Assembly (NCBI GenBank): GCA_965216785.1
Contig: OZ244197.1
Location: forward strand, 1,792,001 to 1,856,000
Direction of reading: 5' to 3'
DNA length: 64,000 bases
Source of the DNA: Thermodesulfobacteriota bacterium
GTDB lineage: Bacteria > Desulfobacterota_D > UBA1144 > Nemesobacterales > UBA2774
Below, in pieces: positions 15,022 to 33,237 of the stretch. Below the pieces are notes generated by a model. The model saw nothing but the letters and a program-made list of their open reading frames with translations. It ran no database searches and was not told the origin of the DNA. Each line of letters starts with the position of its first letter. Positions within the stretch are counted from its first letter, which is position 1. A program made the translations under genes and the position numbers.

Positions 15022-16125
15022 TCAAGGGGTTATGAGCTTAATATTTCTATTGGTCTCGTCATCAGTGTCCAAATAGGTGACCGTTGGCGAGAATTGTAAG
15101 TGCTCAACAGCTTCCTTTTTGTGTTGGGGTGATGGGTGTATGTATCTTTTAGTAGTGCTTATATCTTTATGTCCCATCAGTTCTTGTATCGTAGCAATAT
15201 CTACACCAGACATTGATAGATTACTCCCGAAACTATGTCTTAGATCATGGAACCTTAAATGTGCTATCCCTGACCTTCTTAGAGCACCCCAGAAGGCCTT
15301 TTTTACCGTCTTGACTGGAATACCATTGGCTCCAGCAAAAAGGTGCTCACAATTGTTATTATTAATAACAGACTTTAGAGTCTTCATCAATAGGGAATTA
15401 ATCGGTACATGCCTAATATCTCCATTCTTGCTTTCTCTGACGAGTATATACCTGTCTCTAAGGTTTATGTCAGAAACCCTTAGATTAAGGATCTCAGACC
15501 TTCTTAACCCTGTATGTATGGCTATCATAAGGATAGGTTTTAGGAATTCAGAAGCTGCTGCATATAGTTTTGCGAACTCATCTATTGAGATCACTCGTAA
15601 TTGTTTAGGCTTTTCAGGAAATAATTTTACTTGAGCAACTGGATTGTTCGATATCATATTCCACTCAATTGCTTTTTTAAACATATGTTTCAGCATTGAA
15701 AGTTCTCTATTAATACTTGCCTTAGCAGGACTTTTACCATTTTTCATTATTTCCTTTTGCCGAGATGATTTATATTTTTCAACATGCCAGTTGGTAATTT
15801 GCTGGATTGTTCTTCCATTGAAATATCGCCTAAGATGTTTGGAGGATGTCATGTCTCTGTCATAAGAGTTTGGTCTTTTGTTCGCTTTTGAATATTCAAG
15901 ATATTGTGTAACCAACCTTTCAAATGGAGTTGGCTTGATAGCACTTTCTAATTTGAATTTACCTTGGGCCATTTCTGCTTTTCTTATAGACAAGGCTTTC
16001 TTAGCATCTTCACGATTAATTCTGGAAGGATCGACACCGGGGATTGAAACAACCTCTCGTTTCCTCTTCCCATTCGGCATATAATAATCTATGTACCATC
16101 TGTTACCTTTTCGATAATATCCCAT
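15022..16125 (-). CDS. Tyrosine recombinase/integrase
   Basis: TGLRRSE, SKNG, HDLRH, MGH, KRY catalytic motifs; N-terminal arm-binding-like segment RWYIDYY..GKRKRE. Confidence 0.95.
   Translation of the reverse strand: MGYYRKGNRWYIDYYMPNGKRKREVVSIPGVDPSRINREDAKKALSIRKAEMAQGKFKLESAIKPTPFERLVTQYLEYSKANKRPNSYDRDMTSSKHLRRYFNGRTIQQITNWHVEKYKSSRQKEIMKNGKSPAKASINRELSMLKHMFKKAIEWNMISNNPVAQVKLFPEKPKQLRVISIDEFAKLYAAASEFLKPILMIAIHTGLRRSEILNLRVSDINLRDRYILVRESKNGDIRHVPINSLLMKTLKSVINNNNCEHLFAGANGIPVKTVKKAFWGALRRSGIAHLRFHDLRHSFGSNLSMSGVDIATIQELMGHKDISTTKRYIHPSPQHKKEAVEHLQFSPTVTYLDTDDETNRNIKLITP
15064..15082 (+). repeat. Putative integrase arm-type sites, left arm (2 x GTGWCC, 12-bp period)
   Basis: agtgtccaaataggtgacc; 17/19 identical to 33054-33072. 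Confidence 0.65.
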
Positions 16126-16408
16126 ACTGCTTTCTCCTCTTGAATTTTTTCTCTAATTCTTCAAGTGGATCTATTTCTTTTTTTTCCTTTCCTACATATA
16201 TACAGTGAGTTTTGTTTTTATAAGTGAAGTACGCATACCAGTACAAACCGTGACCCGAACCCCCTTCTCTACACTTACTACAGCCACATTTCGAGGGCTT
16301 CTGCTGATAAACAACCGCTGGGGGTAAAAGAGTTTCTATATGATTATGGAGCTGTCGAAGTTCATAAACACTAAGTTCCTTTAAAATAGGAGCAATCTTA
16401 TCTAACAT
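16103..16408 (-). CDS. Small Cys/His-rich protein, DUF6788-like
   Basis: KCGCSKC....GHGLYWY..Y.GK motif; overlaps the integrase start by 23 nt. Confidence 0.6.
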   Translation of the reverse strand: MLDKIAPILKELSVYELRQLHNHIETLLPPAVVYQQKPSKCGCSKCREGGSGHGLYWYAYFTYKNKTHCIYVGKEKKEIDPLEELEKKFKRRKQYGILSKR

Positions 16409-16542: not shown

Positions 16543-18825
16543 ATGATAGAAAAAGTTGTATTTATAAAAAATATAGGGCGTTTTATTAACTGCAATGCGT
16601 ATGGCGACATCCATTTTCGTAAATGTAATCTAGTTTTTGCAGAAAATGGTCGTGGAAAAACTTCTTTTTGTTCTATTTTACGTTCCCTAAGTACTGGTGA
16701 GTCATCTTTTATTCAGGGTCGAAGAACACTCGGAACAGAAGAATTACCTGAAGTCCATTTAAGACTTGATGGGCAGAATTTCATTTTCAGAAATAATGAG
16801 TGGAATAATACTGTTCCCCATATAATGATTTTTGATGATAGTTTCATAAATCAAAATGTTTACTCAGGTGAAAATGTAGATGTAGATCACCGCCAAAACT
16901 TATATGACATAATAATTGGAGAAAGAGGTAAAGAACTTGCATCTGAAATCCGTAATATTGACAGAGATGTGCGAGATAAGAATGGGCGATTAAGCGAGGT
17001 TAGATCGGAGATAAGAGCATTAATACCAGAAGGAAGAATTGGATTTGAGGCTTTTCTGGATTTACCTTCTGATGGTGAAGTTGATAAGCGTATTACAGAG
17101 AAAGATAGGGAATTAGAAGCAGTTAAACAGTCAGCCATATTACAAAGAAGTCCAGTTTTAAAAACTATCATAATACCCAATATGCCTGAGGGTTTCTTTC
17201 CATTTTTGGCTAAAAGTTTTGATGAGATTGCTGAGGATGCTGAAAAGAAGATAGCAAGCCATATCGAAACCCATAAGATGCAAGATAGTGGAAAGGAATG
17301 GTTATTCGAGGGCTACAAACATATAGAAAAAGATAAATGTCCATTTTGTGCACAGGATTTGTCAAATTCAGAACTTATAAAATCTTATACTAGTTTTTTC
17401 AGTGAAGCTTACAATAAACTCAAAGAAGAAATTAAAATCTTGGAAGAAAGAATTCTCGAGGACTTTGGAGAAGTCAGAATTGCATCGTTAGTAACTAGTT
17501 TAGATAAAAACAAAGCTGCACTTGAATTCTGGAGACGTTATTCTGACCTAAAGGAACCTGTTTTTTCTGATAGCGAGAATCTTAAAGACTACATTTCGCA
17601 GGTTAGGGACATTGCTCAAGAATTACTAATCCAAAAATCACAGACACCCATAGAAAAAATTGAGCCTGATCCTGAGCAAAATATGCATTTTACCAAACTA
17701 AGTAGTTATATAGAGGGGGTTGAGACCTATAATAAGGGAGTCACTGAGGCGAACTCAATCATCCAAGAGATGAAGGAAAAAACACGATCAAGAAATCTTC
17801 GTGATGTCGAAGCGGAAATGATTCAATTAAAGTCAGTGAAGAAACGTCATGAAAGTGAAGTTGCAACAATTTGTGAGAATTATCGCCGATTACTTACAGA
17901 AAAACGAGCTCTAGAAACTAGTAAAATAAGGACTAGGGCATTGTTAGATACGCATACAGACGAAGTAATTGAACAATACGAAAATGCTATTAACCGTTAT
18001 TTAGATTATTTTAATGCGGGGTTCCAAATAGCTAGAACTAATTACGACTATATGGGTGGAACGCCTAATGCACATTACAAGATTTTAATTAATAGGACTC
18101 ATGTTGATCCTGGTAACTCATCATCACCTATTAGTGAGCCTTCTTTTAGAAATACATTAAGTTCTGGTGATCGTAGTGCGCTTGCTTTAGCTTTCTTCTT
18201 AGCGCAATTGGAGAATAATCCTGACAAAGCACAGAAGATAGTCATTTTCGATGATCCATTCAATAGTCAGGACGATTTTAGAAAGGGGAACACCGCACAC
18301 CGTATCAGACAGTGCGCACGCGAATGTACTCAGGTAATAGTATTATCTCATGACAAGCATTTTTTAAAACATGTGTGGGATGAACTACCGAGGGAAGAGC
18401 GTAAATCTATCCAATTTTTCCGAGTTTCAGAGGATTGTACAGATATTGCAGAGTGGGATATTGACACTGCTGTTCAAGCACGGTTTAAAGCTGATATTAT
18501 TACCTTATTGAAATATTACGGTAGCAACGAAGGAGATTCGAGAGATGTTGTAACTAAAATACGACCAGTTTTAGAAGGTTTTTGCCGTAATCTCTATCCT
18601 ACGAAGTTTAGTGAAACTGATACATTAGGTGTGATCGTAGAGAAAATACAAGAAGAGGGTTCAGGTTTTCCTCTTCATTCTATCCATGAAGAATTAGAGG
18701 AGATAAATATTTACAGTCGTAGGTATCACCATAGTGATAATCCAGAGTTCGCTACTGAACCGATCAATGATGCAGAGTTGAAAGGATATATTAAAAGAAC
18801 TCTTGCTGTCACTGGATATTTTTAA
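16543..18825 (+). CDS. AAA_13 / RloC-like Rad50-type ABC ATPase, putative anticodon nuclease
   Basis: Walker A AENGRGKT, coiled coil with CPFC zinc hook, LSSGDR signature, Walker B IFDDP, LSHD H-loop, C-terminal domain with NIYSRRYHH. Confidence 0.75.
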   Translation: MIEKVVFIKNIGRFINCNAYGDIHFRKCNLVFAENGRGKTSFCSILRSLSTGESSFIQGRRTLGTEELPEVHLRLDGQNFIFRNNEWNNTVPHIMIFDDSFINQNVYSGENVDVDHRQNLYDIIIGERGKELASEIRNIDRDVRDKNGRLSEVRSEIRALIPEGRIGFEAFLDLPSDGEVDKRITEKDRELEAVKQSAILQRSPVLKTIIIPNMPEGFFPFLAKSFDEIAEDAEKKIASHIETHKMQDSGKEWLFEGYKHIEKDKCPFCAQDLSNSELIKSYTSFFSEAYNKLKEEIKILEERILEDFGEVRIASLVTSLDKNKAALEFWRRYSDLKEPVFSDSENLKDYISQVRDIAQELLIQKSQTPIEKIEPDPEQNMHFTKLSSYIEGVETYNKGVTEANSIIQEMKEKTRSRNLRDVEAEMIQLKSVKKRHESEVATICENYRRLLTEKRALETSKIRTRALLDTHTDEVIEQYENAINRYLDYFNAGFQIARTNYDYMGGTPNAHYKILINRTHVDPGNSSSPISEPSFRNTLSSGDRSALALAFFLAQLENNPDKAQKIVIFDDPFNSQDDFRKGNTAHRIRQCARECTQVIVLSHDKHFLKHVWDELPREERKSIQFFRVSEDCTDIAEWDIDTAVQARFKADIITLLKYYGSNEGDSRDVVTKIRPVLEGFCRNLYPTKFSETDTLGVIVEKIQEEGSGFPLHSIHEELEEINIYSRRYHHSDNPEFATEPINDAELKGYIKRTLAVTGYF

Positions 18826-18914
18826 AAATTGATAATTAAAACCAGTGAGACTTCTAATAATAGTAATTGGCTCATACCGATTAAAACACTCTCACAAGAA
18901 TGTTTGAAAAAATT

Positions 18915-18931
18915 CTTTCACCAGATGAAAG
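18915..18931 (+). repeat. Palindromic island repeat CTTTCA-CCAGA-TGAAAG, copy 1
   Basis: Exact 17-bp match to 20147-20163 and 30988-31004. Confidence 0.85.
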
Positions 18932-19049
18932 TTTCAAGCTGGGTGATCAGAAGCTTGACCGAAATTTAGAAGATGATCTATCTCATGAAAGTGTAGTCTC
19001 AAACGCTACAAAAGTGTAAACTATGTTAACCGGAATTCCTATGAATCTT

Positions 19050-19670
19050 TTAGTTTCCAAAAATTATTTGAATTGCTTCTGTCGCAGAGTATGGACTTAA
19101 TCCAGTTTTTTCCCAAATCTCGGGATCGGCATCACGAGGCCATATAAGACTTGGTGTGATCTTCTTACTGGCTCCATTCAAAGGATAAGCTTTATCTATC
19201 AGTACAATCCAAATCAATTTTCGTTCAACACCATCAAAATTAGTTCTAGGATCATACACAAATACGCCATCACCTTTTGGATTGTTCATTGTCAAAAACT
19301 CTCTTCCCCCGACCTTTAATTGATTAGGTGCAATTGATTGTATTACAATTCCTCGAGCATAATGGTTGGGTTTAGAGATTGATAGTACTTGTGATTTATA
19401 TTTATAAGTCTCGGGAGATTTTTCTTTTTGGTATTCACGTATAGTTGCATAGCACCTGATATTAAAAAAAGTATCATCAAGATATATTTCTTTACATTCT
19501 TTTTCCATGCAAGATACATCTGGTCCACATTTTTCATAGATTTTTTCGACTTGTTCTTGAGACATTGAAAATTCTCTCTTCTCTATCTGATATTCATCTC
19601 CTAGTGTTTCCAGACAGTACACATTAAATATCAGTATGAATAAGATAAATCCTGTAATTGGTTTAGTCAT
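19050..19670 (-). CDS. Hypothetical exported protein
   Basis: N-terminal hydrophobic signal; AGGAGG upstream; no recognised motif. Confidence 0.6.
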   Translation of the reverse strand: MTKPITGFILFILIFNVYCLETLGDEYQIEKREFSMSQEQVEKIYEKCGPDVSCMEKECKEIYLDDTFFNIRCYATIREYQKEKSPETYKYKSQVLSISKPNHYARGIVIQSIAPNQLKVGGREFLTMNNPKGDGVFVYDPRTNFDGVERKLIWIVLIDKAYPLNGASKKITPSLIWPRDADPEIWEKTGLSPYSATEAIQIIFGN

Positions 19671-19869
19671 TGGTTGTCCTCCTTTTATTTATCGAGAATC
19701 ATGTTTCCATAGCTACCATCATGCATATATTCATTTAGCTAGTTAAATATCCACCGGAATCTAACCAACTTTATAAGTCTTGTTTATAAAAGTCGCATTA
19801 TACTGATTATTGTTATGTATTCAATAGTCTATGGTTTTAGTCACGATTTGACCAGAAGATATTGCCTAT

Positions 19870-20118
19870 ATGGCAACTCGGATAAATAAGAAACTTGTCA
19901 CAGCATTTGCAAGAGCTTTAAAATCTATCCGTCTTGAAAAAGAGCTCACTCAGGAGCAAGTAGCATATGCTGCTAAAGTTCATCGCACATATATTGCTTT
20001 CCTAGAAGGCAGGAGAAAACAACCTTCTATTGATGCAGTATTTAAGATAGCAAATGGTTTAGACATTAAACCGAGTGAATTAATAAGGAGGGTAGAGACA
20101 TATTATTCTAAAAAATGA
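19870..20118 (+). CDS. XRE-family HTH regulator (C-protein-like)
   Basis: LTQEQVA..AKVHRTYIAFLEGRRKQPS HTH_3 motif. Confidence 0.85.
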   Translation: MATRINKKLVTAFARALKSIRLEKELTQEQVAYAAKVHRTYIAFLEGRRKQPSIDAVFKIANGLDIKPSELIRRVETYYSKK

Positions 20119-20145
20119 TGGGTTTCATAGATGTAATGTTGCCCT

Positions 20146-20169
20146 TCTTTCACCAGATGAAAGAATTTC
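20146..20169 (+). repeat. Palindromic island repeat, copy 2
   Basis: tctttcaccagatgaaagaatttc, 24/24 identical to 30987-31010. Confidence 0.85.
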
Positions 20170-20400
20170 CTAGTAGGGATGAGGTTTGAATGAGATTAAA
20201 GCCAGATATCTTCTCCGAAAATCACCCAGCTCCTACTTGATACAGATTCAAAATCCATCGGCTTTATTCAAATACCCTTACGATTCGCTCTCTCCAGCAT
20301 GTCACAGACAACGGAATTTTCGCTTAGGATGTGGGAAATGACAACAATAAGATCAACCGCATGCTCTTATAACATGATTTGATTGCGGCGTTTATAACCA

Positions 20401-20583
20401 AGGTCTCCTAATTCTTTCGGGAGGCTCGATAAAGAGGGGCTGATGAATTATCTGGCAATCCCTTTACACCTGAACGTGCTTACAGTGCTTCCGTTTGGCT
20501 ATTTTGATGAGAGCCTCGGGGGTGGAGATAAATTCAGGAGGAGTCCCGAAGAGGTGTTTCATTTAAATAGGTTCGGGGAGTGA
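20401..20583 (+). pseudogene. Nitroreductase C-terminal remnant
   Basis: Startless frame ...LDKEGLMNYLAIPLHLNVLTVLPFGYFDESLGGGDKFRRSPEEVFHLNRFGE* resembles nitroreductase C-termini; upstream part is degraded. Confidence 0.55.
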
Positions 20584-20713
20584 CTATAGGTGCCGAGGAG
20601 AATTTTTACCGGATGGCCTTTATTTACACCCGGCGAGTGTTTGAGTACGCATCTTTTATTTATACAAGCCACTCTGCTATACTTAAACCAGACTTGCTCA
20701 AAGGATGCAATAA

Positions 20714-21940
20714 TTGAATCCAATTGAAATAATTGTCGATATAGCCAGAGAAGTCGGGATTTCTGGTTTCTTGGATATAGCATTTATTACGATATTTATA
20801 TATGCAATCCTGGTGCTGTTTAAGCAGTCAAAAGCAAGATTTATTATTACAGGCATTCTTATATTAAGTGTAGTATATCTTATAGCCCGACAATTAAATC
20901 TAGCCTTAACTACATCTCTTCTCCAAGCCTTTTTCGCGGTCATCTTGCTTGCTCTTATTATTATCTTCCAGGAAGAAATAAGGCGCCTTTTTGAGCACAT
21001 TGCACTATGGAGCTTAAATCCTAAAGTAAGGTCAAATAAGACTACCAGTCCTGACAATAAGGAAACAGGAATTCTTGTTGATACTCTTTGTGATTTGGCT
21101 CAGCATAAAATTGGAGCGCTCATTGTAATCAAAGGTAAAACGGATTTATCTGGATATTTGGAGGGCGGTGAGATATTAGATGGGAGCATCAGCGAACCTC
21201 TTCTTAAGAGTTTATTTGACCCACATTCGACAGGCCATGATGGAGCAGTGGTAATAAGTAAAGGGAGAATAACATTTTTTGGCACTCACCTTCCCCTATC
21301 AAACAACTTTTCTCAACTTAAAAATAGAGGCACCCGTCACGCGGCTGCACTCGGAATATCGGAAGTTACCGACGCGCTTTGTCTTGTTGTTTCAGAAGAG
21401 AGGGGAACCATATCAATTGCCCATACCGGTGAACTAAAACAAATCGGCTCGGAACAACTAAACATTACTCTTGAGTCTTTTTATGAAGACATAAACCCGC
21501 CTGCTAAAAAAATGCCTCGTTTGGATTTCTCTCGGAATTATAAAGAGAAAATACTAGCATTACTCGCAGCTATAATTCTTTGGTTCGTATTCGTACATGA
21601 ATCAAGAACTGTTTACAGAAGTTTTGAGATACCAATTGAGCATACAACTCTTCCAGCCGGTTTCAAAGTTAAAGAAATAGATCCAGATAAAGTAAGCGTT
21701 ACTTTTTTAGGACCTAGAAGAGAGTTCTATTTCTTTAATGAGAACCAGGTCAGTTTAATACTGAAAATCCCAAATGCCGAACACGGTTTAGAACGCATTG
21801 ATATTTCCGAGTCCAACATTAAGTTTCCAAATGATCTATCTTTAGAAGATGTCGAGCCAAGAACAGTTACTGTACACATTGAAAAAATAGAAGCATTGAA
21901 TAAACAAGGGGATAATTTAAAAAACCAAGATCCTAGGTAG
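20714..21940 (+). CDS. dacA: Diadenylate cyclase CdaA/DacA with fused C-terminal TM and YbbR-like domain
   Basis: 3 N-terminal TMs, FQEEIRR, HDGA, GTRHAAALG, VSEERG; extra TM and YbbR-like tail. Confidence 0.85.
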   Translation: MNPIEIIVDIAREVGISGFLDIAFITIFIYAILVLFKQSKARFIITGILILSVVYLIARQLNLALTTSLLQAFFAVILLALIIIFQEEIRRLFEHIALWSLNPKVRSNKTTSPDNKETGILVDTLCDLAQHKIGALIVIKGKTDLSGYLEGGEILDGSISEPLLKSLFDPHSTGHDGAVVISKGRITFFGTHLPLSNNFSQLKNRGTRHAAALGISEVTDALCLVVSEERGTISIAHTGELKQIGSEQLNITLESFYEDINPPAKKMPRLDFSRNYKEKILALLAAIILWFVFVHESRTVYRSFEIPIEHTTLPAGFKVKEIDPDKVSVTFLGPRREFYFFNENQVSLILKIPNAEHGLERIDISESNIKFPNDLSLEDVEPRTVTVHIEKIEALNKQGDNLKNQDPR

Positions 21941-21954
21941 GGGAGGACACACCT

Positions 21955-23268
21955 ATGGAAACAACTACACCACTTTTGCCCTATGTGCAAAAATTCTTTG
22001 AATACGATCCTTTGACTGCAACCCACGCACTTGAAACTATGGATGAGGAGGAGGCAATCAAGATACTCACCATTCTTCCGGCTTCTATGTCCTCAAGTAT
22101 CTTTCGAAGATTGCCCACCGAACTAGCTGCGTCGCTGCTTGAAAAGGTCCCGCCCGAGACATTTATAGAAATTGCGGAAAAAATGGAGCCCCAGCAGGGC
22201 GCTACAATACTCATGCACATAACTGATGAAATAAGAACCAGAATGCTGACACACTTGCCGGATAAGACCAAGATGGCAATACAAGAGATACTGACTTATC
22301 CGAAGGGAAGTGTGGCTAGTATTATGACCACTAAATACGTAGCATTCCATAAAGATATTAGAATTTCAGATGTAGTTGAAAACATCCGTCAAAGAGCTCA
22401 TTCCAAAGCTCCGCCAGCGAGTTATGTATATGTTATAGACAATGAAAATCACCTGATTGGTGTCCTCAATATGCGTGATCTCATAATTGCAGATTCCGAT
22501 TCAAAGCTTGAATCAATAATGATAAAAAATCCGTATTGTATAAACGCTTTTACAGAGAGGGAGGTTGCGGCTAATGAGCTCGCCGACCGAAAATATTTTG
22601 CAGCTCCCGTAGTCGATAATGAAAACCACCTTTTGGGCATAGTAAAAGCCGATCAATTAATCAGCCAAGCTCAAGAAGACGCAAGTGCAGACCTTCAGAA
22701 AATGTTCGGAGTATCTCCAAGTGAGCATGTATTCTCATCGATTAAATTTTCTCTTACTAAACGACTTCCCTGGCTTCATATTAACTTGGTTACCGCTTTT
22801 ATGGCCGGGTCGGTTATTGCTATATTTGAGGGGATCATTGCTAAGATTACTGTTTTAGCCATATTTCTCCCTATAATTGCTGGCCAGGGCGGTAACGCTG
22901 GTTCCCAGTCATTGGCTGTAGTGATGAGGGGGCTTGTAATGAGGGAAGTTTCACCAAGAGAGACAAAGCAATTGGTGATGAAAGAGGCTAAACTCGGTCT
23001 TATAAATGGCGTAGTAATAGGATTTGTTACTGCGCTTATTGCTTGGATGTGGAAAGGTAATCCATACCTTGGACTCGTGATTGGACTTGCTATGATAGTG
23101 AACTTAGTGGCCGCAGGTGTTTCAGGAGCAATTATTCCCCTTACTCTCAAAGCATTCGGACAAGACCCCGCTCAGTCTTCAGCTATCTTACTCACCACTG
23201 TGACCGATATTATAGGATTCTTTTCATTTCTCGGGTTTGCTATGATATTCCAGAGTTTATTAATATAG
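21955..23268 (+). CDS. mgtE: Magnesium transporter MgtE
   Basis: MgtE_N, CBS pair, RLPWL, GGNAGSQ, DPA..S..LTTVTD. Confidence 0.93.
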   Translation: METTTPLLPYVQKFFEYDPLTATHALETMDEEEAIKILTILPASMSSSIFRRLPTELAASLLEKVPPETFIEIAEKMEPQQGATILMHITDEIRTRMLTHLPDKTKMAIQEILTYPKGSVASIMTTKYVAFHKDIRISDVVENIRQRAHSKAPPASYVYVIDNENHLIGVLNMRDLIIADSDSKLESIMIKNPYCINAFTEREVAANELADRKYFAAPVVDNENHLLGIVKADQLISQAQEDASADLQKMFGVSPSEHVFSSIKFSLTKRLPWLHINLVTAFMAGSVIAIFEGIIAKITVLAIFLPIIAGQGGNAGSQSLAVVMRGLVMREVSPRETKQLVMKEAKLGLINGVVIGFVTALIAWMWKGNPYLGLVIGLAMIVNLVAAGVSGAIIPLTLKAFGQDPAQSSAILLTTVTDIIGFFSFLGFAMIFQSLLI

Positions 23269-23319
23269 CGTTGACCGATAAACTAACAAATTAGTTCGCT
23301 CTGCTGAGATTGCGTTCTA

Positions 23320-24342
23320 TTAACTATTCGGATTTTTCTTTTTAGCCAACTCCTGCATGTCTTCGTGTATATCTGATTCATCAACTATTTCTTCTCCGAT
23401 TAAAGACTCTATTACATCTTCTAAGCTGACTACTCCGATAAATCTGTTATTTCCATCCCTGACACAAAAGAGGTGGCGGCGAGTATCTATAAATTTATCC
23501 AGAAGCTCGTGTAAAGGCATCCCTCCATGAACAAAGTCTGGTGATACCATCAAATTGTTAATCTGCACATCGCTTTTTCCCTTAAGTAAAGCAAAATCAA
23601 TATCACGTCTATTAACTATTCCTATTATATTATTTTTGTCATTTTCGCCATACACCGGCATTCTACTGAAAATCCAGTTTTCAGAATCGATATCGATATC
23701 CTTGATAGCTATATTTCCCGGCAAACTGTAAACAACGGAACGAGGAGTCATAATGTCGTGAACAATAGACCTGTCAAGGAGCAATGCATTTATTACCATG
23801 CGGGCTTCATGAGACATTATGGCACGACTATGACGACCAAGTAATGCTAAGCTAATTATATCCTCTTCTGTAGGGAAATTTATGTGACTCTCTTTTCCCC
23901 AGACTCTTGTTATAACGACAGTAATTTTTACGAAGGGCCAGAGCGCTTTAACAAAAAAGGTAATAACACCAGCCAACCGGGGTGCGATTGAGCTTGCAAA
24001 AGTCACTCCTAATGATTTAGGGAGTATTTCACTCAAAAAAAGAACGGCTCCTGTGAATACCCCCGAAAATATACCAAGCCACATATCACCATAGTGTTTG
24101 GCGATTAATCCGGCTGACCATGTTGCCCCTATTATATTGATAGCGGTATTAAGAGTGAGGATTGCTGCAATCGGCTCATCAATTTTATCCCGCAGCTTAG
24201 CAAGCTTAACGCCGCCCGGATCACCACTTCGTTTTAAGGATTCGATGCGGCCCCTCGGTATTGCATATAGAGCTGCCTCCATAAGCGAACAAAAAAAATA
24301 ACCCAGGAGTGTAACCCCTACTATCACGGCTATAGCAAACAT
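23320..24342 (-). CDS. CNNM/CorC (DUF21 + CBS) putative Mg2+ exporter, paralog A
   Basis: FCSLMEAA, AILTLNT, SEILPK, MTPR, SRMPVY, GVVSLEDVIE.LIGEEIVDE. Confidence 0.88.
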   Translation of the reverse strand: MFAIAVIVGVTLLGYFFCSLMEAALYAIPRGRIESLKRSGDPGGVKLAKLRDKIDEPIAAILTLNTAINIIGATWSAGLIAKHYGDMWLGIFSGVFTGAVLFLSEILPKSLGVTFASSIAPRLAGVITFFVKALWPFVKITVVITRVWGKESHINFPTEEDIISLALLGRHSRAIMSHEARMVINALLLDRSIVHDIMTPRSVVYSLPGNIAIKDIDIDSENWIFSRMPVYGENDKNNIIGIVNRRDIDFALLKGKSDVQINNLMVSPDFVHGGMPLHELLDKFIDTRRHLFCVRDGNNRFIGVVSLEDVIESLIGEEIVDESDIHEDMQELAKKKNPNS

Positions 24343-24378
24343 AAGCTCCTTTCCTTATAACACTTAGAGATATGATTA

Positions 24379-25401
24379 TTAACCCTTAGGACCTTTCCTT
24401 TTTGCTAATTCTTGCATGTCTTCATGAATATCGAGCTCGTCCACTATCTCTTCGCCTATTAGGGACTCGATAATGTCCTCCAAAGTGACAATACCCATAT
24501 ACTCATCCTTTGAGTTCTTCACACAGAATAGATGTCTTCTTGTTAAGATAAAACGCTTAAGCAGCTCGTTCAGATGCATATCCTCGGGCACGATGTCAGG
24601 AGGTATCATAACACTCCTTAATGTTTTGTTACCCTCACCTCTCATTAGAGCCATATAGACATCGCTTCTTAAAGCCACGCCTACTATATTGTCAGGTTGC
24701 CCTTCTGTATAAACAGGAATTCTGCTGTAATGCCAGTAGTCCGAATCCAGGTCTATATTCCCCAGTATTGTGCTGTCCGGCATCTCCATTACTACGGATT
24801 TGGGTGTGTAGATCTCCTTAACCCTCAACTCGTCCAGCCTGAGTGCGTTTGTTACAATTTCCGCCTCCTCGGGCAGTATTCCGCCACCATGATGCGTAAG
24901 CTCGGCAAGGCTCTTTAAATCATCTTCCGTTGGGAAGTTCAGGTGAGAATTCTTGCCCCACAGGCTTGTAATAAACACGCTCAGTTTTACAAAAGGCCAT
25001 AGTATTTTGATGAGAAAATCAATCAGTATGGACAAGCGTGGAGCGAGGGCGTTTGCATAAGTTACTCCCAGGGACTTTGGAATAATTTCGCTGAATATCA
25101 AAACTCCCCCTGTAAATAGGCCGGAAAAAACTCCGAGCCAAGTATCCCCGTAATACCTGGCAACCAGAGAGCCCGCAATGGACGCCCCGATTACGTTTAC
25201 AGCAGTGTTGAGAGTTAGTATAGCTGCTATAGGCTGATCAATATTATCTCTTAGTCTGGCCAGCCTTATCCCGCCCGGGTCACCTTCCCGCTTCAAAGAC
25301 TCGATCCTGCTCCGGGGAATGGAATATATTGCAGCTTCCATAAGCGAGCAGAAAAACGATCCCAATAAGCTGATTCCTGTTATTATTGCAATAGCGTACA
25401 T
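24379..25401 (-). CDS. CNNM/CorC (DUF21 + CBS) putative Mg2+ exporter, paralog B
   Basis: Same motifs and same 340-aa length as the neighbouring paralog. Confidence 0.88.
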   Translation of the reverse strand: MYAIAIITGISLLGSFFCSLMEAAIYSIPRSRIESLKREGDPGGIRLARLRDNIDQPIAAILTLNTAVNVIGASIAGSLVARYYGDTWLGVFSGLFTGGVLIFSEIIPKSLGVTYANALAPRLSILIDFLIKILWPFVKLSVFITSLWGKNSHLNFPTEDDLKSLAELTHHGGGILPEEAEIVTNALRLDELRVKEIYTPKSVVMEMPDSTILGNIDLDSDYWHYSRIPVYTEGQPDNIVGVALRSDVYMALMRGEGNKTLRSVMIPPDIVPEDMHLNELLKRFILTRRHLFCVKNSKDEYMGIVTLEDIIESLIGEEIVDELDIHEDMQELAKRKGPKG

Positions 25402-25439
25402 AGATCAATTCCTTCCCTTTAGGCAACTAAGTGTAGCAC

Positions 25440-26396
25440 TCAGTTATCGGCTGTGTCCTCTATACCGACATTGATGAGAGCGTCTCCCCTATTTACAATC
25501 GGTAGACTTCTGATACCGATTATATAACCGTCCGTGCTAGTTCTTATTTTATGTTCAGTCTCGCCAAAGGGGTCGGTAATGCTCGCGATGATTTGGCTTT
25601 TCTTGACTTTCTCACCATATTCTACAAAAGCTCTATAAATTCCCGAGTTCCTTGCACGTATCCATGAAGTACTTCTAATCTCTACAGAGCTCTTTCGTTT
25701 TTGTGGATTTACTTTCATCATTTTTAAATGCTTCATGAGCCGCTTGATTCCCTCCATCCCTTCCTTAATTGCAAGCTCATCGAAGCGGAGTGATTCCCCG
25801 CCTTCGAAAACAAGAATAGTTTTCCCCTCTTTATGCGCCGATTTTCTCAATGAATCGTCTCTTAGTTTAGAATTTATTATAAAAGGTGGAGCGAAGGCAC
25901 GGGCCAGAGTTAAATTGTCCGGCGCATCAAACGTACATCTCACCTGTGGATAATTATTATTTGCCCCTCCAGTGTGCAGATCGACTCCATAATCAATTAC
26001 AGGCATTATTTTACTCATCAAAGTATGAGCTACTCGTGAAGCGAGTGAGCCGGTTTTTGTACCCGGAAAACTCCTGTTAAGATCCCTGCCGTCCGGAAGA
26101 TACCGGGACTTGTTTAAAAAGCCATAAACATTAACGATGGGCACAGCGACTACCATTCCTGCGGATGGTATTACTGACTGGTTAACTATCAAACGTCTGA
26201 TTGTTTCAATACCATTTAGCTCATCTCCATGTATACCTGCCATAATAAGAAGACTGGGCCCTTCCTTTTTACCTCTGAAAACAAATACAGGCAAGTCTAT
26301 CATTGTATGCGTCGGCAGTTTTGCGACGTTCAAGTTTATTTGAGCGTTCTGCCCAGGTGCTATTTCTTCACCATTTATTACTATGGTTTCTGGCAT
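25440..26396 (-). CDS. Succinylglutamate desuccinylase/aspartoacylase (AstE/AspA, M14) family
   Basis: AGIHGDELNG, DLNRSFPG, DLHTG; C-terminal biotinyl-like domain. Confidence 0.9.
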   Translation of the reverse strand: MPETIVINGEEIAPGQNAQINLNVAKLPTHTMIDLPVFVFRGKKEGPSLLIMAGIHGDELNGIETIRRLIVNQSVIPSAGMVVAVPIVNVYGFLNKSRYLPDGRDLNRSFPGTKTGSLASRVAHTLMSKIMPVIDYGVDLHTGGANNNYPQVRCTFDAPDNLTLARAFAPPFIINSKLRDDSLRKSAHKEGKTILVFEGGESLRFDELAIKEGMEGIKRLMKHLKMMKVNPQKRKSSVEIRSTSWIRARNSGIYRAFVEYGEKVKKSQIIASITDPFGETEHKIRTSTDGYIIGIRSLPIVNRGDALINVGIEDTADN

Positions 26397-27305
26397 TTAT
26401 GATTTTACTCTATCTTTTATTAGTCTTTTGCGGTGAGCGTTTTCTTCTACAAACTCAATGATTTTTGATGCAACATCAATACCACTGGCTTTTTCAATAC
26501 CCTCAAGACCAGGGGATGAATTGACCTCCATAATCTTGGGGCCCGTACTGGATTGCAGCATGTCTACCCCGGCAACGTTAAGCCCGAGTAGCTTAGCTGC
26601 TTTAATAGCGGTCGAGCGTTCGCTTCTGCTAAGTTTGATTTCATTAGCGCTTCCACCACGGTGTATGTTTGAGCGGAACTCCCCTTCAGCGCCCTGTCTT
26701 TTCATAGCCCCTACGACTTTCCCACCTACAACGAACGCCCTTATGTCAGCTCCCTTAGATTCTTTTATAAACTCCTGAATGAGGATGTTAGCCTGGATAC
26801 CATAAAAGGCTTCCAAAACGGATTTTGCAGCTTTTTTGGTTTCTGTAAGTACGACTCCGATACCCTGTGTGCCTTGAAGGAGCTTTATTACTAGTGGAGC
26901 TCCCCCAACTTCCTCTATCAGGTGGTTTATATCGTCAGGGTCCGATGCAAAAGCGGTAACCGGCATTCCGAGTCCCGCGCGTGAAAGTATTTGCATACTG
27001 CGAAGTTTATCTCTTGACCTCACAATCGCCTGTGACTCGTTTACCGGGAACACATGCATCATTTCAAACTGTCTGACAACAGCAGTACCATAGAAGGTTC
27101 TTGAAGCGCCAATCCTCGGAATAACAGCATCGATCCCTGTGAGTTTTTCCCCATCGATATATATCTCTGGATTCTTTTTCTCTATCACCATGTAGCATTT
27201 CAGAAAATCTAACACTTGAACATCGTGCCCTCTCTCCTGAGCAGCCTCTACGAGTCTTTTAGTAGAATAAAGATTCTCGTTTCTCGACAATATGGCTATC
27301 TTCAT
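26397..27305 (-). CDS. rimK: RimK alpha-L-glutamate ligase (ATP-grasp)
   Basis: [52 protein letters not shown]. Confidence 0.95.
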
Positions 27306-27766
27306 TTTTGTCTCCCTTTGTTTTTATGCTTATATGATAGATTCGATTTAGTTACATCGACAACAAACCCCTCTTTCAATAATTTTCTGCCTAATAGTAT
27401 GGGTTTTCCCATTTTTGAGCGGTCACTTAAAGAAATCTCTATATCATAATTTTCCCCGAAAAGCCTTATGGAAGTCTTAATTATGCATCTTTTCTCCGAT
27501 ATACCAAACGAACTTTTGACATTCCTTATTGCGTGTAGCTTTACTCTGAACCTCTTTTCGTCATAATCTGGATGTGAGGGATCGAGAAGATTGAAAGTTA
27601 CATATTTTTGCCCGTCCTTCTCTTTTACTTTGATATTGTGGCAGTGTATTGACGATGTGTAGGCACCTGTGTCTATTTTTGCGTCAATGTCATAAAGCCT
27701 CATTCTTGGAAAGTCAACTTTATCTCTTCTGCCAATTAAGCGTTTTTCTGTTCTATTTTTAGACAT
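27302..27766 (-). CDS. RimK-associated retropepsin-like protease (RimB-like / 'ATP-dependent Zn protease')
   Basis: [25 protein letters not shown]; 4-nt overlap with rimK. Confidence 0.85.
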
Positions 27767-27825
27767 CTATATGCTTGATATTATTACACAGATATATCAT
27801 TATGTAACTAGAGGACGGTGCATTA

Positions 27826-29622
27826 ATGTTTGATTTTGTGACACAGCTGGACGATTTTTTCCTAGCACTATATGTTCATCTAACTTCCAATATAAAAGAC
27901 GAGTTAGCAGCTGCCGCAGTTCTTCTCGTAGTTTTTGTGGTAACGCTTCTTGTGCATAAAAAAGCAATCGGGTTTCTCCTACGCACCCAATGGAAGTTCA
28001 AGCCGTATGTACTGTTTCTCATAGCTCTCGTCTTTCCGCTTATTTATATTCTTATCGTAATTGGGGCGGCTCCACATTTGAAAGGTGGATTGACTCTAAT
28101 ATTATTCTCCTCTCTTGCTTATTTCTATCTTGGCTTTTACCTAATAAAGAACCTGCTTGAACCGCTCAGGATAAACAGCGTACCATGGAAGATTATTTCA
28201 TATGTATTATTATTATTGACCGTAATTTTCAACGCATTAGTTGATCTAAACACGCAGTTCTTTAAAAGCCCCGATTTACAAGAAGTATTCTCCATATTTT
28301 TCAAAGTCTCTGCAATACTGCTTATTTACATGTTTTTACTCAGAGCACTTAGGTTTTTAACTGAATTTCTTCCAGAGCGGCAAATAGTTGCGAAACATAT
28401 TATAGAGAGCCTCATAAGCGTAGTGTCGGTTCTATATATTATCCTCGCAGCGCTCTGGCTCTTTAAATTAGTCGGGTTCGCATCATCGCTATTTGTCGGC
28501 GGCGTGGCTGTATTTATTGCCGTAGTGGGCTATGGGCTTCTCAAATCTTTTGCTGCTAGTTATCTGGGGCCGAAAACAGATGGAAATCCTTCATATAGTG
28601 CGTTGCTAAAGAGTATTGAATCTTTCCTCATTCTGCTGCTGATCTATGTTCTATACATTATATTCAAACTCTCTTTTAACCTGGAGCAGGTTCATCACTT
28701 CCTTTCCGAGGCGTATCTAGTAAATACAGGCGTGATTGTTATATCTTTATTCTCTCTAGTTTCTGGGCTCTTCATGTTCTTCTTTTTACTTTCAATGATG
28801 GGGATCTTAAAACAAATAGTTTATTTCTACAACATGAAGCTCGGCAGGGAGCTCGAAGCGGCTTCGCTCAGGTCTTTGGTATCTAATCTCGGCCTGTTGA
28901 TCGTAATAATGATTGCCCTTTCCGGGATCGGCCTTACATGGAAAGCATTACTCCCCATAGCGGGTGCTCTGGGAATAGGTATTGGGATTGGGCTCCAAAC
29001 TATTATGAATAACTATCTTAGCGGCTTCATACTCTTATTCAGTAAGCGCCTTAAGATTGGAGACATTATAGAATTTGACGGTAATGCGGGTAGAGCTATT
29101 GGGAATACATTAGAGACCATATATGGTCGTGTCGTAAGTATTGATACATTTTCAAGCGTAGTAACGACTACTGACGGCATCGAAATAGTTGTCCCCAACT
29201 CACAATTTATAGATAAGCAGATGGTAAATTATTCACTTTCTGACTATACAATCAGGGTTAGGATTCCTTTCGGTGTCTCCTATTCTGCAGATCCCAATAC
29301 AGTAAAAGATATACTTTTAAAAGTAGCCAATGAAAATACTCAAATACTCAGGTCTCCCGAGCCCGGCCTTTGGTTTACGGAATATGCCGATAGCGCCCTG
29401 GTGTTCTATCTGCTTTGCTGGGTTAATATCAAGGACATTTGGAAAATAAAACCTGTCATTAGCGATATTTACTTCAAGAGCTGGTATGAGCTGAAAAAAG
29501 CCGGTGTAGTCATACCATTCCCGCAAAGAGATGTGTGGTTTAAAAATAATCTTAAGGTCGAGATAGAGAAAGATCTCGGAGAGCACTTTCAAAAGAAACC
29601 GGGCGACTGGGGAGGTGAATAA
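27826..29622 (+). CDS. MscS-family mechanosensitive channel with extended N-terminal TM region
   Basis: GALGIGIGIGLQTIMNNYLSG, VPNS, GVSY, IPFPQRDV. Confidence 0.9.
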   Translation: MFDFVTQLDDFFLALYVHLTSNIKDELAAAAVLLVVFVVTLLVHKKAIGFLLRTQWKFKPYVLFLIALVFPLIYILIVIGAAPHLKGGLTLILFSSLAYFYLGFYLIKNLLEPLRINSVPWKIISYVLLLLTVIFNALVDLNTQFFKSPDLQEVFSIFFKVSAILLIYMFLLRALRFLTEFLPERQIVAKHIIESLISVVSVLYIILAALWLFKLVGFASSLFVGGVAVFIAVVGYGLLKSFAASYLGPKTDGNPSYSALLKSIESFLILLLIYVLYIIFKLSFNLEQVHHFLSEAYLVNTGVIVISLFSLVSGLFMFFFLLSMMGILKQIVYFYNMKLGRELEAASLRSLVSNLGLLIVIMIALSGIGLTWKALLPIAGALGIGIGIGLQTIMNNYLSGFILLFSKRLKIGDIIEFDGNAGRAIGNTLETIYGRVVSIDTFSSVVTTTDGIEIVVPNSQFIDKQMVNYSLSDYTIRVRIPFGVSYSADPNTVKDILLKVANENTQILRSPEPGLWFTEYADSALVFYLLCWVNIKDIWKIKPVISDIYFKSWYELKKAGVVIPFPQRDVWFKNNLKVEIEKDLGEHFQKKPGDWGGE

Positions 29623-30063
29623 TGTCTTCGAGGCTAGTAAAAAAGACATCAGCCAAAAAGGCCTACGACCGGGCTCACTAATTTACATTGGCGAACAAAA
29701 AGTCGATAAAGTCAGAATCAGGGTAATAGATTACGATGAGAAGAACCTAATTGAGTATGAATATGAAAGTATTGAAGAAACCTTTTCATTCAAAGATAAC
29801 AATTCTGTTTCATGGATAAATATAGACGGTCTACACGATGTGGAAGTTCTCAGAAAATTAGGCGAAAATTTCGGAATTCATAATCTCGTTCTTGAAGATA
29901 TTTTAAACACTGACTTCCCTGACTTTTATAGCCGGCCTTTACGGAATGAATTTTGATAATATGCCGGAGCTACATAAGAATTGGGGCTACCCTATAGTTA
30001 TTATCGTTATAGTAGTTGTAGCAGTAGGAATGATATATTATTTTAAGAAAAAAATGGTTTTAG
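29622..30063 (+). pseudogene. corA: CorA Mg2+ transporter pseudogene (internal deletion plus frameshifts)
   Basis: N-terminus MSSRLVKK../GLRPGSLIYIGE..WINIDGLHD..LEDILNT joined at ~29913, in another frame, to [21 protein letters not shown]; frameshifts in A-runs at ~29655 and ~30050. Confidence 0.85.
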
Positions 30064-30114
30064 TTGTTGTTTCTTAAATCGATAGTTATCGGTCAAGGAC
30101 TGAATGGGGACACT

Positions 30115-30960
30115 ATGAAAATTGCTGTAACAGCAGCGAGTGGGCATTTGGGTGCCGAGATAGTCAAGGCAACTGTTCAGCTTGTTGGTAAAGGTAACGT
30201 TGTCGGGCTTGCACGCACGCCTTCCAAAGCCGAACATCTTGGTATTGAAATTCGGAGGGGTGATTACGGTTCCAAGAAAGATTTAATGAAAACGCTGCGA
30301 CACGTGGACACCCTCTTGTTGGTATCCGGTATGGATGATCCTATAAAGCGCATTGATCAACACCGTAATGTAATTTATGCTGCCAAGTATGCTGGTGTGA
30401 AGAAGATTGTCTATACCAGCATTCAAGGTGCTGAGAAGCATACGGCTTTTTCTCCAATAATTCAAAGCAATCGCCAAACTGAGTGTGATTTACATCTCTG
30501 CGGATTAGATTGGGTAATTGGGCGCAATGGAATTTATATTGAATCAGACATTGAGTGTATAGCAACCTACAAGGAGAAGGGAGAAATCGCAAATTGTGCT
30601 GGCGATGGAAGATGTGGTTACACCACCCGGCCCGAATTAGCGTATGCCTATGCCCGAATCTTGACCGAATCCAAGCACAATGGTAGAACATATAATCTGC
30701 ATGGAGAACCGATTACACAGTATCAGCTAGCAGCTTATCTAAACATGACGTTTGGCACCAACTTGACATATAGACCTATGACAGTAGAAGAATATCGCCA
30801 AGATCGTATTACGGAATTGGGTGAATCAATGGGTAATATTATAACTGGCATCTATCAGGGAATTCGCGAAGGAGCATTGTTTAACATCAGCCATTATACT
30901 GACGCAACTTCCAGATCCCATCAAAGTTGGGAAAATTATTTCAATGCTCTGAAAATATAA
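30115..30960 (+). CDS. NmrA/atypical SDR NAD(P)H-binding oxidoreductase
   Basis: MKIAVTAASGHLG, GVKKIVYTS, RNGIY; ATG at 30115. Confidence 0.85.
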   Translation: MKIAVTAASGHLGAEIVKATVQLVGKGNVVGLARTPSKAEHLGIEIRRGDYGSKKDLMKTLRHVDTLLLVSGMDDPIKRIDQHRNVIYAAKYAGVKKIVYTSIQGAEKHTAFSPIIQSNRQTECDLHLCGLDWVIGRNGIYIESDIECIATYKEKGEIANCAGDGRCGYTTRPELAYAYARILTESKHNGRTYNLHGEPITQYQLAAYLNMTFGTNLTYRPMTVEEYRQDRITELGESMGNIITGIYQGIREGALFNISHYTDATSRSHQSWENYFNALKI

Positions 30961-30986
30961 GAATAATACTTTATATTTTTGTGTAC

Positions 30987-31010
30987 TCTTTCACCAGATG
31001 AAAGAATTTC
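30987..31010 (+). repeat. Palindromic island repeat, copy 3
   Basis: Identical to 20146-20169. Confidence 0.85.
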
Positions 31011-31167
31011 AGATGTATCCGCTCTTATTTCTTAGTAATTCGTATTTTATATAGACTGTGAACTTTGTGAGCCTATGTATAGTTATACAGGAACATCATT
31101 CAAGCTAGATATTATGTAAAATGCTTGCAACACAAAACGAGTATAGGGATCGCCACTTATACTCATT

Positions 31168-31189
31168 CTTATCCAATAGTATTGGATAT
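31168..31189 (+). repeat. Palindromic site TATCYAA-N5-TTRGATA, copy abutting the rep stop codon
   Basis: tatccaata-g-tattggata perfect palindrome at 31170-31188; second hairpin gagtata..tatactc at 31139-31164. Confidence 0.55.
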
Positions 31190-31674
31190 TATTTTCGGGT
31201 TCTATTAACTTCAGGGAAAACTAATTGCCCCTTATTAGTTTTGGGTGAGTAAAAATCAATCTCACTACCAAATCTAATGCTCTTAGTCAAATAAAATTTC
31301 GCTCCTAATTCAGGATCGTAATCATAAATACGAGCAAAACCATTTATGCTTTCATCTTCGTTTAAATTGAAGTTTTTTTCCCATAAATACATGTATTTCA
31401 GCTTATCTAATTTCCATACATCTCCGCCCATTAAAAAATGAAAGTGAATGACATTCCTTTTTTGATTTTCTAATACATAAACCCATGTTACGCCTAAATT
31501 CTTTTCTCTATATCTTCTGCCGTGAAGTTGCTGGTTTATTTTTTTTATGAAAGTGAAGAATCTTCTCTTAGCTATTTCAGGGTGAATTTGTTGCTGAAAT
31601 GTAAGTGTTCCATACCAATGGAAGGGTTCTAGCATAGATATTAGCTCAATCCAACCTAACTCTATAGGTCGCAA
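31189..31674 (-). CDS. Minimal HUH endonuclease / rolling-circle replication initiator-like protein
   Basis: Motif I GTLTF, motif II IHFHFLM, motif III YLTK in the canonical order. Confidence 0.7.
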   Translation of the reverse strand: MRPIELGWIELISMLEPFHWYGTLTFQQQIHPEIAKRRFFTFIKKINQQLHGRRYREKNLGVTWVYVLENQKRNVIHFHFLMGGDVWKLDKLKYMYLWEKNFNLNEDESINGFARIYDYDPELGAKFYLTKSIRFGSEIDFYSPKTNKGQLVFPEVNRTRK

Positions 31675-31693
31675 ATATGACTCATTAATATAA

Positions 31694-31885
31694 TTAATTA
31701 TAGCTCACCTCCACTCTATGTTTTTCAAGGAAATTCTCGAATTCAGATTGGTTGATTAGTATCTTTTTTTGGATTCGGTAGTGGGCAATCATTTTGTAAC
31801 GAATCCAATAATAAATCGTTGTTACATTGATTCCATATAATGCTGATAAGTCTTTGGGGGAGAGTTTCTTATCTTTGCTCTTCAT
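31694..31885 (-). CDS. Excisionase-like HTH_17 DNA-binding protein
   Basis: LSPKDLSALYGINVTTIYYWIR..I..YRI..KILI; 63 aa. Confidence 0.8.
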   Translation of the reverse strand: MKSKDKKLSPKDLSALYGINVTTIYYWIRYKMIAHYRIQKKILINQSEFENFLEKHRVEVSYN

Positions 31886-32128: not shown

Positions 32129-33034
32129 TTATAATTCGTTCATTTCTTTCTTTAAGTTCTTTTTAGCAGCTACTTCTAATTGACTTATTCTAGTTACAGA
32201 TATCTTTAATTCCTTCGCAGCTTCTGTCTTGTTAAAACCTTTGAAATACAACAATTCTATCACTTTTCGCTGTTGATCTGTAAGTTTCATTAATTGATTT
32301 TTTAGGTATTCCAGATCATTTATCAGAAAGATATCTTCCTCTAGATGAAAAGTATTATCATCAAACTCTTCAGGAATACCTTTCTGGAGTTCACCAAGTT
32401 GATATCTGATGCTGTCTTTGACTCGGAATGGTAACTTTTCTAAGTCTTCCAGGAGAGAAAAGAGCATTGAATCCTTACTTGTATCAAATGCATTTCTTAG
32501 AGTACTCTCAAATTCTTCTTGTAATAGTTCTTCTGGTAAGTCTTGTATATCTTTATGAAAAAGAAACTTTACTTCTCGTTCATGCTTTATATAGACACCA
32601 TATCTCTTGGATACTTTGGCAGTTGCATATCTGAGTTCATCCAATAATTGTCTATCGTCGTCAAGTATTCGTCTGAATCTGGGATAACCGTATTTTGGAT
32701 ACTCCTTTTCGAGGAACTTTAATATATTTCTCCATCGAGTGATGTATTCAGGAGTGCACATCACCCGTATAGCAAACATGGTATCCTTAGAAGAGTCAGT
32801 TATATCTTGGACGTAATATTCATTTTGTGTGCCGAAATATTGATCAATGATTTCAGCAGCTATATCTAATATTTTTCCATTCAGAGATTTATTTGAATCG
32901 ATACACTTATCCTTTGAAATGACTACAGCCTTTTCATTTTCGAATACCCTAATCTCAAATTTATCCAAAGTTTGGGCAATAGGTTCCGCTCTTTTCCGAA
33001 AATTCTTAACTTCAAGCTCACTTGCAGTAGGCAT
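32129..33034 (-). CDS. Protein with C-terminal sigma-70 region 4 HTH
   Basis: LTDQQRKVIELLYFKGFNKTEAAKELKISVTRISQLEVAAKKNLK; N-terminal part unrecognised. Confidence 0.7.
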   Translation of the reverse strand: MPTASELEVKNFRKRAEPIAQTLDKFEIRVFENEKAVVISKDKCIDSNKSLNGKILDIAAEIIDQYFGTQNEYYVQDITDSSKDTMFAIRVMCTPEYITRWRNILKFLEKEYPKYGYPRFRRILDDDRQLLDELRYATAKVSKRYGVYIKHEREVKFLFHKDIQDLPEELLQEEFESTLRNAFDTSKDSMLFSLLEDLEKLPFRVKDSIRYQLGELQKGIPEEFDDNTFHLEEDIFLINDLEYLKNQLMKLTDQQRKVIELLYFKGFNKTEAAKELKISVTRISQLEVAAKKNLKKEMNEL

Positions 33035-33189: not shown

Positions 33190-33237
33190 GGATTAGGAAT
33201 CCTGCGCTCTATCCTGCTGAGCTACGGGGACTGTTTA
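33190..33237 (+). repeat. att direct repeat, right: orphan 5' fragment of tRNA-Arg on the minus strand
   Basis: 48/48 identical to 14968-15015; lacks T-arm and 3' acceptor strand. Confidence 0.95.

Follow-up and report, generated by a model that had tools for sequence, protein, structure and literature searches.

A testable way into the question of how islands inserted at tRNA genes gain their cargo is offered by a short sequence found at the seams of cargo in members of two genera. The question is raised by a stretch of 64,000 nucleotides from a Thermodesulfobacteriota bacterium, of a lineage that we take to be the Dadabacteria. This stretch, hereafter the window, is G000:C1:1792001-1856000, where G000 denotes the source genome, a single contig of 3,118,197 bp. 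Within it an island of 18,222 bp, bounded by 48-bp direct repeats at a tRNA-Arg(CCT) gene, carries three copies of a short palindromic site. Is this site where the blocks of cargo were put together? We favor, with a probability of roughly 0.42, the explanation that it is a junction at which blocks of DNA were joined by recombination between copies, the recombinase probably being supplied from elsewhere.

The 17-mer CTTTCACCAGATGAAAG matches exactly at positions 18915, 20147 and 30988, always on the + strand. A preliminary description of this DNA had reported three exact copies in one orientation, 24 bp common to copies 2 and 3, and no copy outside the island, and each of these points was borne out. 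Copies 2 and 3 have 24 bp in common (20146-20169 = 30987-31010), copies 1 and 2 have 19 bp in common, and a search of the whole genome at 0-1 mismatch returned these three copies only, all inside the island. Three exact copies within 18 kb and none elsewhere in 3.12 Mb speak for a junction; the motif is not a common genome-wide repeat, the outcome that the same description had named as counting against its proposal. The repeated unit is 18-27 bp long, near-palindromic and sharply bounded, with an odd-centered dyad (10-1-10 to 12-1-12) and near-identical arms. The flanks of four copies, the three in the window and one in a second genome (G018, another genus), were unrelated in 12 of 12 pairwise tests (p = 0.29-0.88); a longer flank similarity in a four-way alignment was apparent only, and failed a shuffle test.

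That the repeat arose by chance or as an artefact of assembly is scarcely credible. The source genome is rich in short repeat families, and a comparable repeat (three exact copies of at least 18 bp, more than 500 bp apart) was found in 3 of 150 random 18-kb windows of it; the three-copy pattern is therefore uncommon, though not unique. Against chance, shuffled sequence gave a mean of 0.20 matches to the 17-mer at ≤3 mismatches, and the copy in the other genus matches 23 of 24 bases. Against an artefact, independent contigs from three sequencing runs (X5, X6 and X7) agree over 14986-33219. These observations largely refute this explanation already. Two looser matches, one with 3 mismatches at G000:C1:1895033 and one with 3 mismatches of 21 in the G018 mgtE gene, fall within coding frames and were set aside as chance. 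Literal 17-mers occurred in none of the papers of the literature searched, which excludes subscription papers and supplements. We conclude that the site is a real feature and probably functional, because a sharply bounded 24-mer recurs in unrelated contexts and in two genera.

The copies share a genomic setting. Their cores start 88, 27 and 26 bp after the stop codons of the AAA_13, XRE and NmrA genes, respectively. The preliminary description, whose gene labels agree with Pfam, had rightly placed all copies downstream of genes, and two of them between convergent genes. This count was too low: the convergent frames facing copies 1, 2 and 3 are a 206-aa gene, a decayed SLOG remnant on the - strand, and rep, and all three copies are so placed because copy 2 faces the SLOG-family remnant. 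The blocks separated by the copies differ in origin and in GC content (0.34-0.36 vs 0.41), which upholds the claim that the sites divide unrelated blocks; the 10.8-kb block between copies 2 and 3, described as a single module, is itself composite, as detailed below.

This placement bears on whether the site is instead an operator for a dimeric regulator, either an XRE/HTH protein of the island or a metal regulator of the host, with its border position incidental. Odd-centered dyads are typical operator geometry, which the 10-1-10 to 12-1-12 dyad fits, and both islands, that of the window and that of G018, carry metal-related cargo. However, an operator is very unlikely, because the 500 bp that follow each window copy contain no gene start on either of the strands, and the XRE family has its own upstream box. 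The preliminary description had argued likewise from placement. All 4 of 4 XRE orthologues (in G000 and G003) share that box and lack the site, and a host regulon would leave other copies, of which none exists within 1 mismatch. The box itself, at 19815-19845, is conserved upstream of the XRE gene in its orthologues and is a probable autoregulatory operator of the controller-protein type.

Among 61 genomes searched with the window 18-mer at 1 mismatch, G018 was the only further genome with a match; the search of the genome and its relatives proposed in the preliminary description thus returned the island copies and this one. The G018 copy matches copy 2 at 23 of 24 bases; a zero-order model predicts fewer than 0.001 such matches across the class, against about 0.3 for the 18-mer by itself. 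Apart from one wobble this copy is a 12-1-12 dyad. It closes a block of heavy-metal genes (MerR, RND pump, P-type ATPase), and 2 kb away, at the 3' side of tRNA-Arg(CCT), there is an integrase. In five orthologues of the P-type ATPase the stop follows the motif GLRV by 2-6 codons; the G018 ATPase reads 16 codons past GLRV, and its stop codon lies inside the site.

Homology breaks near the site at the end of this ATPase and, weakly, at the right edge of copy 2, the two places where such a break is testable. At copy 2, similarity to a sister island resumes 15-65 bp to the right, although the closer of the matches is weak (p = 0.024); at the corresponding position the sister island lacks the site. 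The island as a whole is mobile. In two studies (runs X1, X2 and X3), contigs pass directly from 14967 to 33190; close strains therefore carry an empty site, and the island site is also empty in G002, of the same genus.

The same short distance from stop codons is what would be expected of a small hairpin at gene 3' ends, a weak bidirectional terminator or RNA-stabilizing stem, copied along with gene ends and joined passively through short homology in the manner of the PeSL elements of phages. We consider this somewhat unlikely, and it is the strongest of the alternatives. All four copies lie 0-88 bp behind stops in the same orientation, three of them between convergent frames, and RNA folds of the copies reach -4.5 to -11 kcal/mol. 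Conservation of the loop is compatible with such a role, because the source genome has a hairpin family of ~25 copies that keeps its loop. Shuffling mediated by PeSLs has been described (PMC2839356, PMC4122927), and a PeSL-like explanation stays alive because the copies are fixed behind stop codons. The stems, however, are AU-rich with no run of five U, a terminator scan of 18700-20800 calls neither copy 1 nor copy 2, the minimum-energy fold of the copy 1 + strand lacks the dyad hairpin, and at 18-24 bp the site is short beside PeSLs of ~100 bp. The preliminary description had argued against terminators from the weak stem and from a conserved asymmetric spacer; the AU-rich stems, uncalled at copies 1 and 2, support the first argument, and the second fails, since the spacer is not conserved in its asymmetry, the G018 copy being a symmetric 12-1-12 dyad.

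Several sets of observations weigh against a junction formed by recombination. The first concerns the cargo. The block running from DAC to CorA (the Mg block) is syntenic, whole or in part, in seven relatives (G021, G012, G005, G018, G029, G009 and G027) at 66-77% DNA identity, and none has the site at the block ends. Homology to this block starts near 20670 and ends at 30062, that is, it stops ~500 bp to the right of copy 2 and 925 bp to the left of copy 3. From copy 2 to the block there follow the SLOG remnant and the 3'-terminal third of a nitroreductase gene, and the NmrA gene occupies the interval before copy 3. This makes the 10.8-kb module a mosaic, and its inner seams lack the site. 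In G021 synteny also breaks behind the same ATPase, without a site. A change of gene content at the site, the test proposed in the preliminary description, is thus seen near it at the G018 ATPase and, weakly, at the edge of copy 2, and the Mg block and G021 run counter to it.

Distribution is the second. Only 2 of 120 class genomes (G000 and G018) contain the site. With a 23-mer at ≤3 mismatches the number rises to 4 of 120, and the two additions, each a single 3-mismatch match, are no better than a reversed-pattern control (7). The core of the G018 copy is symmetric, and the G018 integrase is only 30% identical to that of the island. Scans for the motif returned 7 matches in viral contigs, 102 in metagenomes (22 of these 102 loci being covered as short stretches only) and 47 in GTDB genomes; all were single, with no second exact copy, and the full right arm was found only in the G018 sequence. 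Their flanks were unrelated, and in tblastn none of the island's backbone proteins turned up next to a match from the viral contigs or the metagenomes. An integrase stood beside the genome matches at L208 (the same sequence as G018:C3) and, weakly, at L195.

Nor did the assemblies capture exchange between copies. Each of X5, X6 and X7, all from one sample, yielded a single 18,234-bp contig through all three copies, and these independently assembled contigs span 14986-33219 unbroken with no differing letter. X4 yielded five main contigs, whose breaks near 22056, 25427 and 28992 do not coincide with the sites. Forms lacking an inter-site segment, which the preliminary description had suggested looking for, were absent from the assemblies: the contigs of the four runs, X4-X7, contain no joint or skip between copies, a result that bounds exchange only loosely because contigs drop rare forms. 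Island-contig depth was slightly above that of the flanks in X5-X7; contig depth is not copy number, and we did not use it as evidence.

Finally, no enzyme could be linked to the site. The generic tyrosine-recombinase core consists of inverted 9-13-bp arms around an asymmetric 6-8-bp overlap. The likeness to this layout drawn in the preliminary description stands for the arms, which measure 9-12 bp, and is doubtful for the core: a 7-bp center is possible, but its asymmetry amounts to two bases in the window copies and one in G018, whose core we read as symmetric. The tyrosine recombinase genes near the copies, among 15 matches in G000 and 10 in G018, were the island integrases only. An integrase at E≤1e-60 is present in 17 further genomes, none of which has the site; of their 33 loci, the DNA of 23 was examined, much of it truncated at contig ends. 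The proposal that cargo is gained and lost as cassettes at this site is accordingly not sustained as it was framed: the 10.8-kb module is a mosaic with siteless inner junctions, the relatives' Mg block and the XRE orthologues lack the site, the contigs hold no copy-to-copy skip, and no recombinase is tied to it.

A family of small tyrosine recombinases of 210-230 aa, containing the catalytic domain, was also found, with three members in G000, two in G018 and one in G004, and with a conserved upstream palindrome. Loci of the family or its palindrome are G000:C1:871656, 876732, 1164132 and 1289320, L300, L301 and L022; in one G000 island a second direct copy of the palindrome lies 5 kb away and brackets a gene block. 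From their sequences, these recombinases and their palindrome are a candidate resolvase-module system. They are not tied to the site described here, because their own upstream palindrome differs from it.

The island's rolling-circle Rep suggests another role for the site, as a cis element of rolling-circle replication (a Rep nick or termination site, a single-strand origin, or a transfer or packaging signal) duplicated by read-through or tandem accretion. Only 178 bp separate copy 3 from the end of this intact-looking HUH Rep, which keeps HUH-type motifs in an alignment of 7 homologues. A different conserved non-coding motif is similarly placed behind distant Reps; it is also present in the island of G018 and downstream of an XRE gene. 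What four Rep loci conserve, however, is the first 100 bp after the stop, a strong double hairpin (31135-31192) and not the site; the three of these loci outside the island, at 35-38% Rep identity, have no counterpart of the site. G018 has the site and no match to Rep, a point that also counts against a junction made by recombination. We regard this cis-element role as distinctly unlikely. Rep itself has three close homologues (P0002-P0004, 64-74% identity), no plasmid match and one distant phage match; searches of viral contigs with Rep, XRE and the integrase gave no close relative and 10 distant integrase loci. The conserved non-coding element, 80-100 bp long, may be an origin or transfer signal.

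Taken together, a junction made by recombination between copies ranks above a passive 3' hairpin, followed by a replication or transfer signal and then an operator. Taken by itself the case is weak: there are four copies, exchange was not observed, and no enzyme is linked to the site. In the mechanism we envisage, a circle or fragment carrying one copy would cross over with a resident copy, so that the new block ends up flanked by a copy at either end, an event that would have happened twice. The captured blocks would have been mosaics already, or would have been eroded later by deletions, and exchange would now be rare or silent. A broader proposal, which we think unlikely, is that Dadabacteria-like tRNA islands exchange modules by an undescribed system whose recombination site is the 24-bp dyad, served by an enzyme in trans, the dyad being one sequence type within a wider class of island palindromes. 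That enzyme might be a small catalytic-domain tyrosine recombinase or the island's rolling-circle Rep, acting in trans, and multi-gene blocks joined behind stops would yield co-oriented arrays without an integron integrase or Xer.

Table 1. Features of the island and of related islands. Coordinates are window positions unless a genome contig or locus is named.
Feature	Position	Strand	Remark
Site copy 1	18910..18937	+	18-bp core 18914-18931; left arm full, right arm shortened
Site copy 2	20145..20169	+	core 20146-20163
Site copy 3	30987..31010	+	core 30987-31004; 178 bp from Rep stop
tRNA-Arg(CCT), island target	14935..15009	-	island on the tRNA's 5' side
Left attachment repeat	14968..15015	.	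48 bp: tRNA 5' half plus 6 bp
Right attachment repeat	33190..33237	.	48 bp
Phage-type tyrosine integrase, 367 aa	15022..16125	-	profile match
DUF6788-like small protein	16103..16408	-	recurs next to integrases in relatives
AAA_13 (RloC-like) protein	16543..18825	+	PADLOC PDC-S06 candidate defense gene
206-aa protein, hydrophobic N-terminus, probably exported	19050..19670	-	predicted; no Pfam family
XRE / controller-like HTH protein	19870..20118	+	Pfam
Decayed SLOG (YAcAr-like) 3' remnant	20233..20399	-	sequence comparison
Nitroreductase gene, last third (3')	20417..20583	+	82% DNA identity to the host's intact copy
Mg block: DAC, MgtE, 2 CNNM, AstE, RimK, Zn protease, MscS, CorA-like gene	20714..30062		
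NmrA/SDR oxidoreductase	30064..30960	+	Pfam
Double hairpin directly behind Rep stop	31135..31192	-	z = -4.6
Rolling-circle Rep (PF23343)	31189..31674	-	distantly like filamentous phage XacF13 replication protein
HTH_17 excisionase-like protein	31694..31885	-	Pfam
301-aa protein, C-terminal sigma70 region-4 HTH	32129..33034	-	homologue in sister island
Integrase arm-type repeat, probable	15065..15082	.	second copy 33055-33072; unlike the palindromic site
Direct intergenic repeats between cargo genes, L235 (G044:C5)	3782-3874, 5803-5889, 8537-8610		
80-100-bp non-coding element	G000:C1:893660 and 1214482; L021 1922; L022 near 12900		
~26-70-bp repeat family	G000:C1:1213632, 1614546, 2688039, 2690879, 2692871		

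The remaining features of the island are collected in Table 1. At E≤1e-30 none of the 119 remaining genomes matches the AAA_13 protein, and the NmrA gene is not found at that threshold in 100 other genomes of the order; the best named matches of the latter are in other phyla, at up to 77%. The SLOG remnant is 74% identical to a sister-island gene (G000:C1:99065-99478). The CorA-like gene (29615-30062) has undergone an internal loss of ~640 bp relative to G021, G012, G029 and G009. Near the G018 Mg block, a 698-aa frame that appears reverse-transcriptase-like by eye occupies L154 8658-10754 (G018:C18). In addition to the genes listed, the right backbone holds a 64-aa open reading frame. The double hairpin behind rep is a candidate replication origin or rep terminator. 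A repeat near the ends, like that at 15065 and 33055, is common to members of the integrase family and distinct from the palindromic site; it is probably the arm-type repeat of the integrase. An Rfam search of 14500-34000 returned tRNA only.

Just outside the right attachment repeat, 34 bp (33255-33288) match the island integrase (15360-15393) at 91%. G002 has a comparable piece after its empty site; this is likely the scar of an earlier related element. The tRNA-Arg(CCT) gene is used through its 5' half by the island in the window and on its 3' side, with an unrelated integrase, by the G018 island, and a 59%-identical integrase lies on the 5' side of tRNA-Arg(CCT) in G068:C9. Other repeats occur in related islands. 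In a tRNA-Met island with a 50%-identical integrase (L235), a different repeat of 60-75 bp stands three times between genes, always in direct orientation, and islands of this family may commonly carry direct repeats in their interior. Several G000 islands have members of an intergenic repeat family of ~26-70 bp among their cargo genes, and one of these islands has three. A motif of ~22 bp is scattered through islands of the family (G000:C1:867952, 869563, 1164497, 1282112, 1323522, and relatives); because a frame for an IS3-type transposase (HTH_21, rve) is found ~330 bp away from one copy, we take it to be, probably, the remnant of an insertion sequence end.

How does the site compare with known systems? 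The attC sites of integrons have the consensus RYYYAAC ... GTTRRRY. Neither RYYYAAC nor GTTRRRY occurs on either strand in the ~100 bp around any of the three copies in the window (the G018 copy has one of each nearby, unpaired), and the island integrase scores 85.3 bits on TIGR02249, vs a cut-off of 265 for an integron integrase; an attC site was therefore rejected. The resemblance to integron arrays lies in co-oriented imperfect palindromes placed directly behind stops, with the G018 stop inside the site, whereas the site is far shorter, its modules hold several genes, and both the RYYYAAC...GTTRRRY frame and the integron integrase are missing. A host dif site was rejected as well: likeness to the host dif candidate (G000:C1:2550768) is at best 12-13/28, the island background having a mode of 13, and no dif-like copy (at least 20/28) lies in the island. 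As a copy of the tRNA attachment site, left by stacked tandem islands, the sequence reaches at best 10/24 against the 48-bp repeat, and this too was rejected. The preliminary description had found the site unlike all three, and we agree.

PeSLs, the intergenic stem-loops of T4-like phages, have been proposed as crossover points for gene gain and loss; they are ~100 bp long, combine a sigma-70 promoter with a GC-rich stem, and number ~50 per genome (PMC2839356, PMC4122927). The site resembles them in that a stem-loop recurs between genes, after their ends, in variable regions, and departs from them in being 18-27 bp, AT-rich, free of an associated promoter, and present in three copies. Around copies 1 and 2 (18700-20800), none of 12 promoter-like matches overlaps a core, so no promoter and stem-loop composite is present there.

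The island as a whole resembles tycheposons and PICI-like elements, which are described as 10-20-kb tRNA elements with an integrase at one end and a small replication module at the other (bioRxiv 10.1101/2020.12.28.424599). It has a tRNA integrase with direct repeats, an empty site in relatives and cargo between, and its far end (31189-33034) encodes Rep, HTH_17 and the sigma-4 protein. It differs in having a rolling-circle HUH Rep in place of a primase/helicase, and in integrating at the 5' half of the tRNA; the likeness is one of layout. The string "palindrom" does not occur in the main text of that paper.

Another parallel in arrangement is offered by the dif modules of Acinetobacter plasmids. 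There a pdif site comprises 11+6+11 bp, its XerC and XerD arms differ from each other and correspond to those of the host dif, C and D modules alternate, and excision and integration need direct orientation and matching spacers (PMC13141974). Both systems place short sites, in direct matching copies, between unrelated multi-gene modules with no adjacent recombinase gene. The site described here is odd-centered, with near-identical arms unlike the host dif, and all three window copies lie on the + strand, so that C/D alternation does not occur; and exchange, demonstrated for pdif, is a proposal here. If a dedicated enzyme does act on this site, the islands would possess a cassette mechanism separate from both integrons and dif modules.

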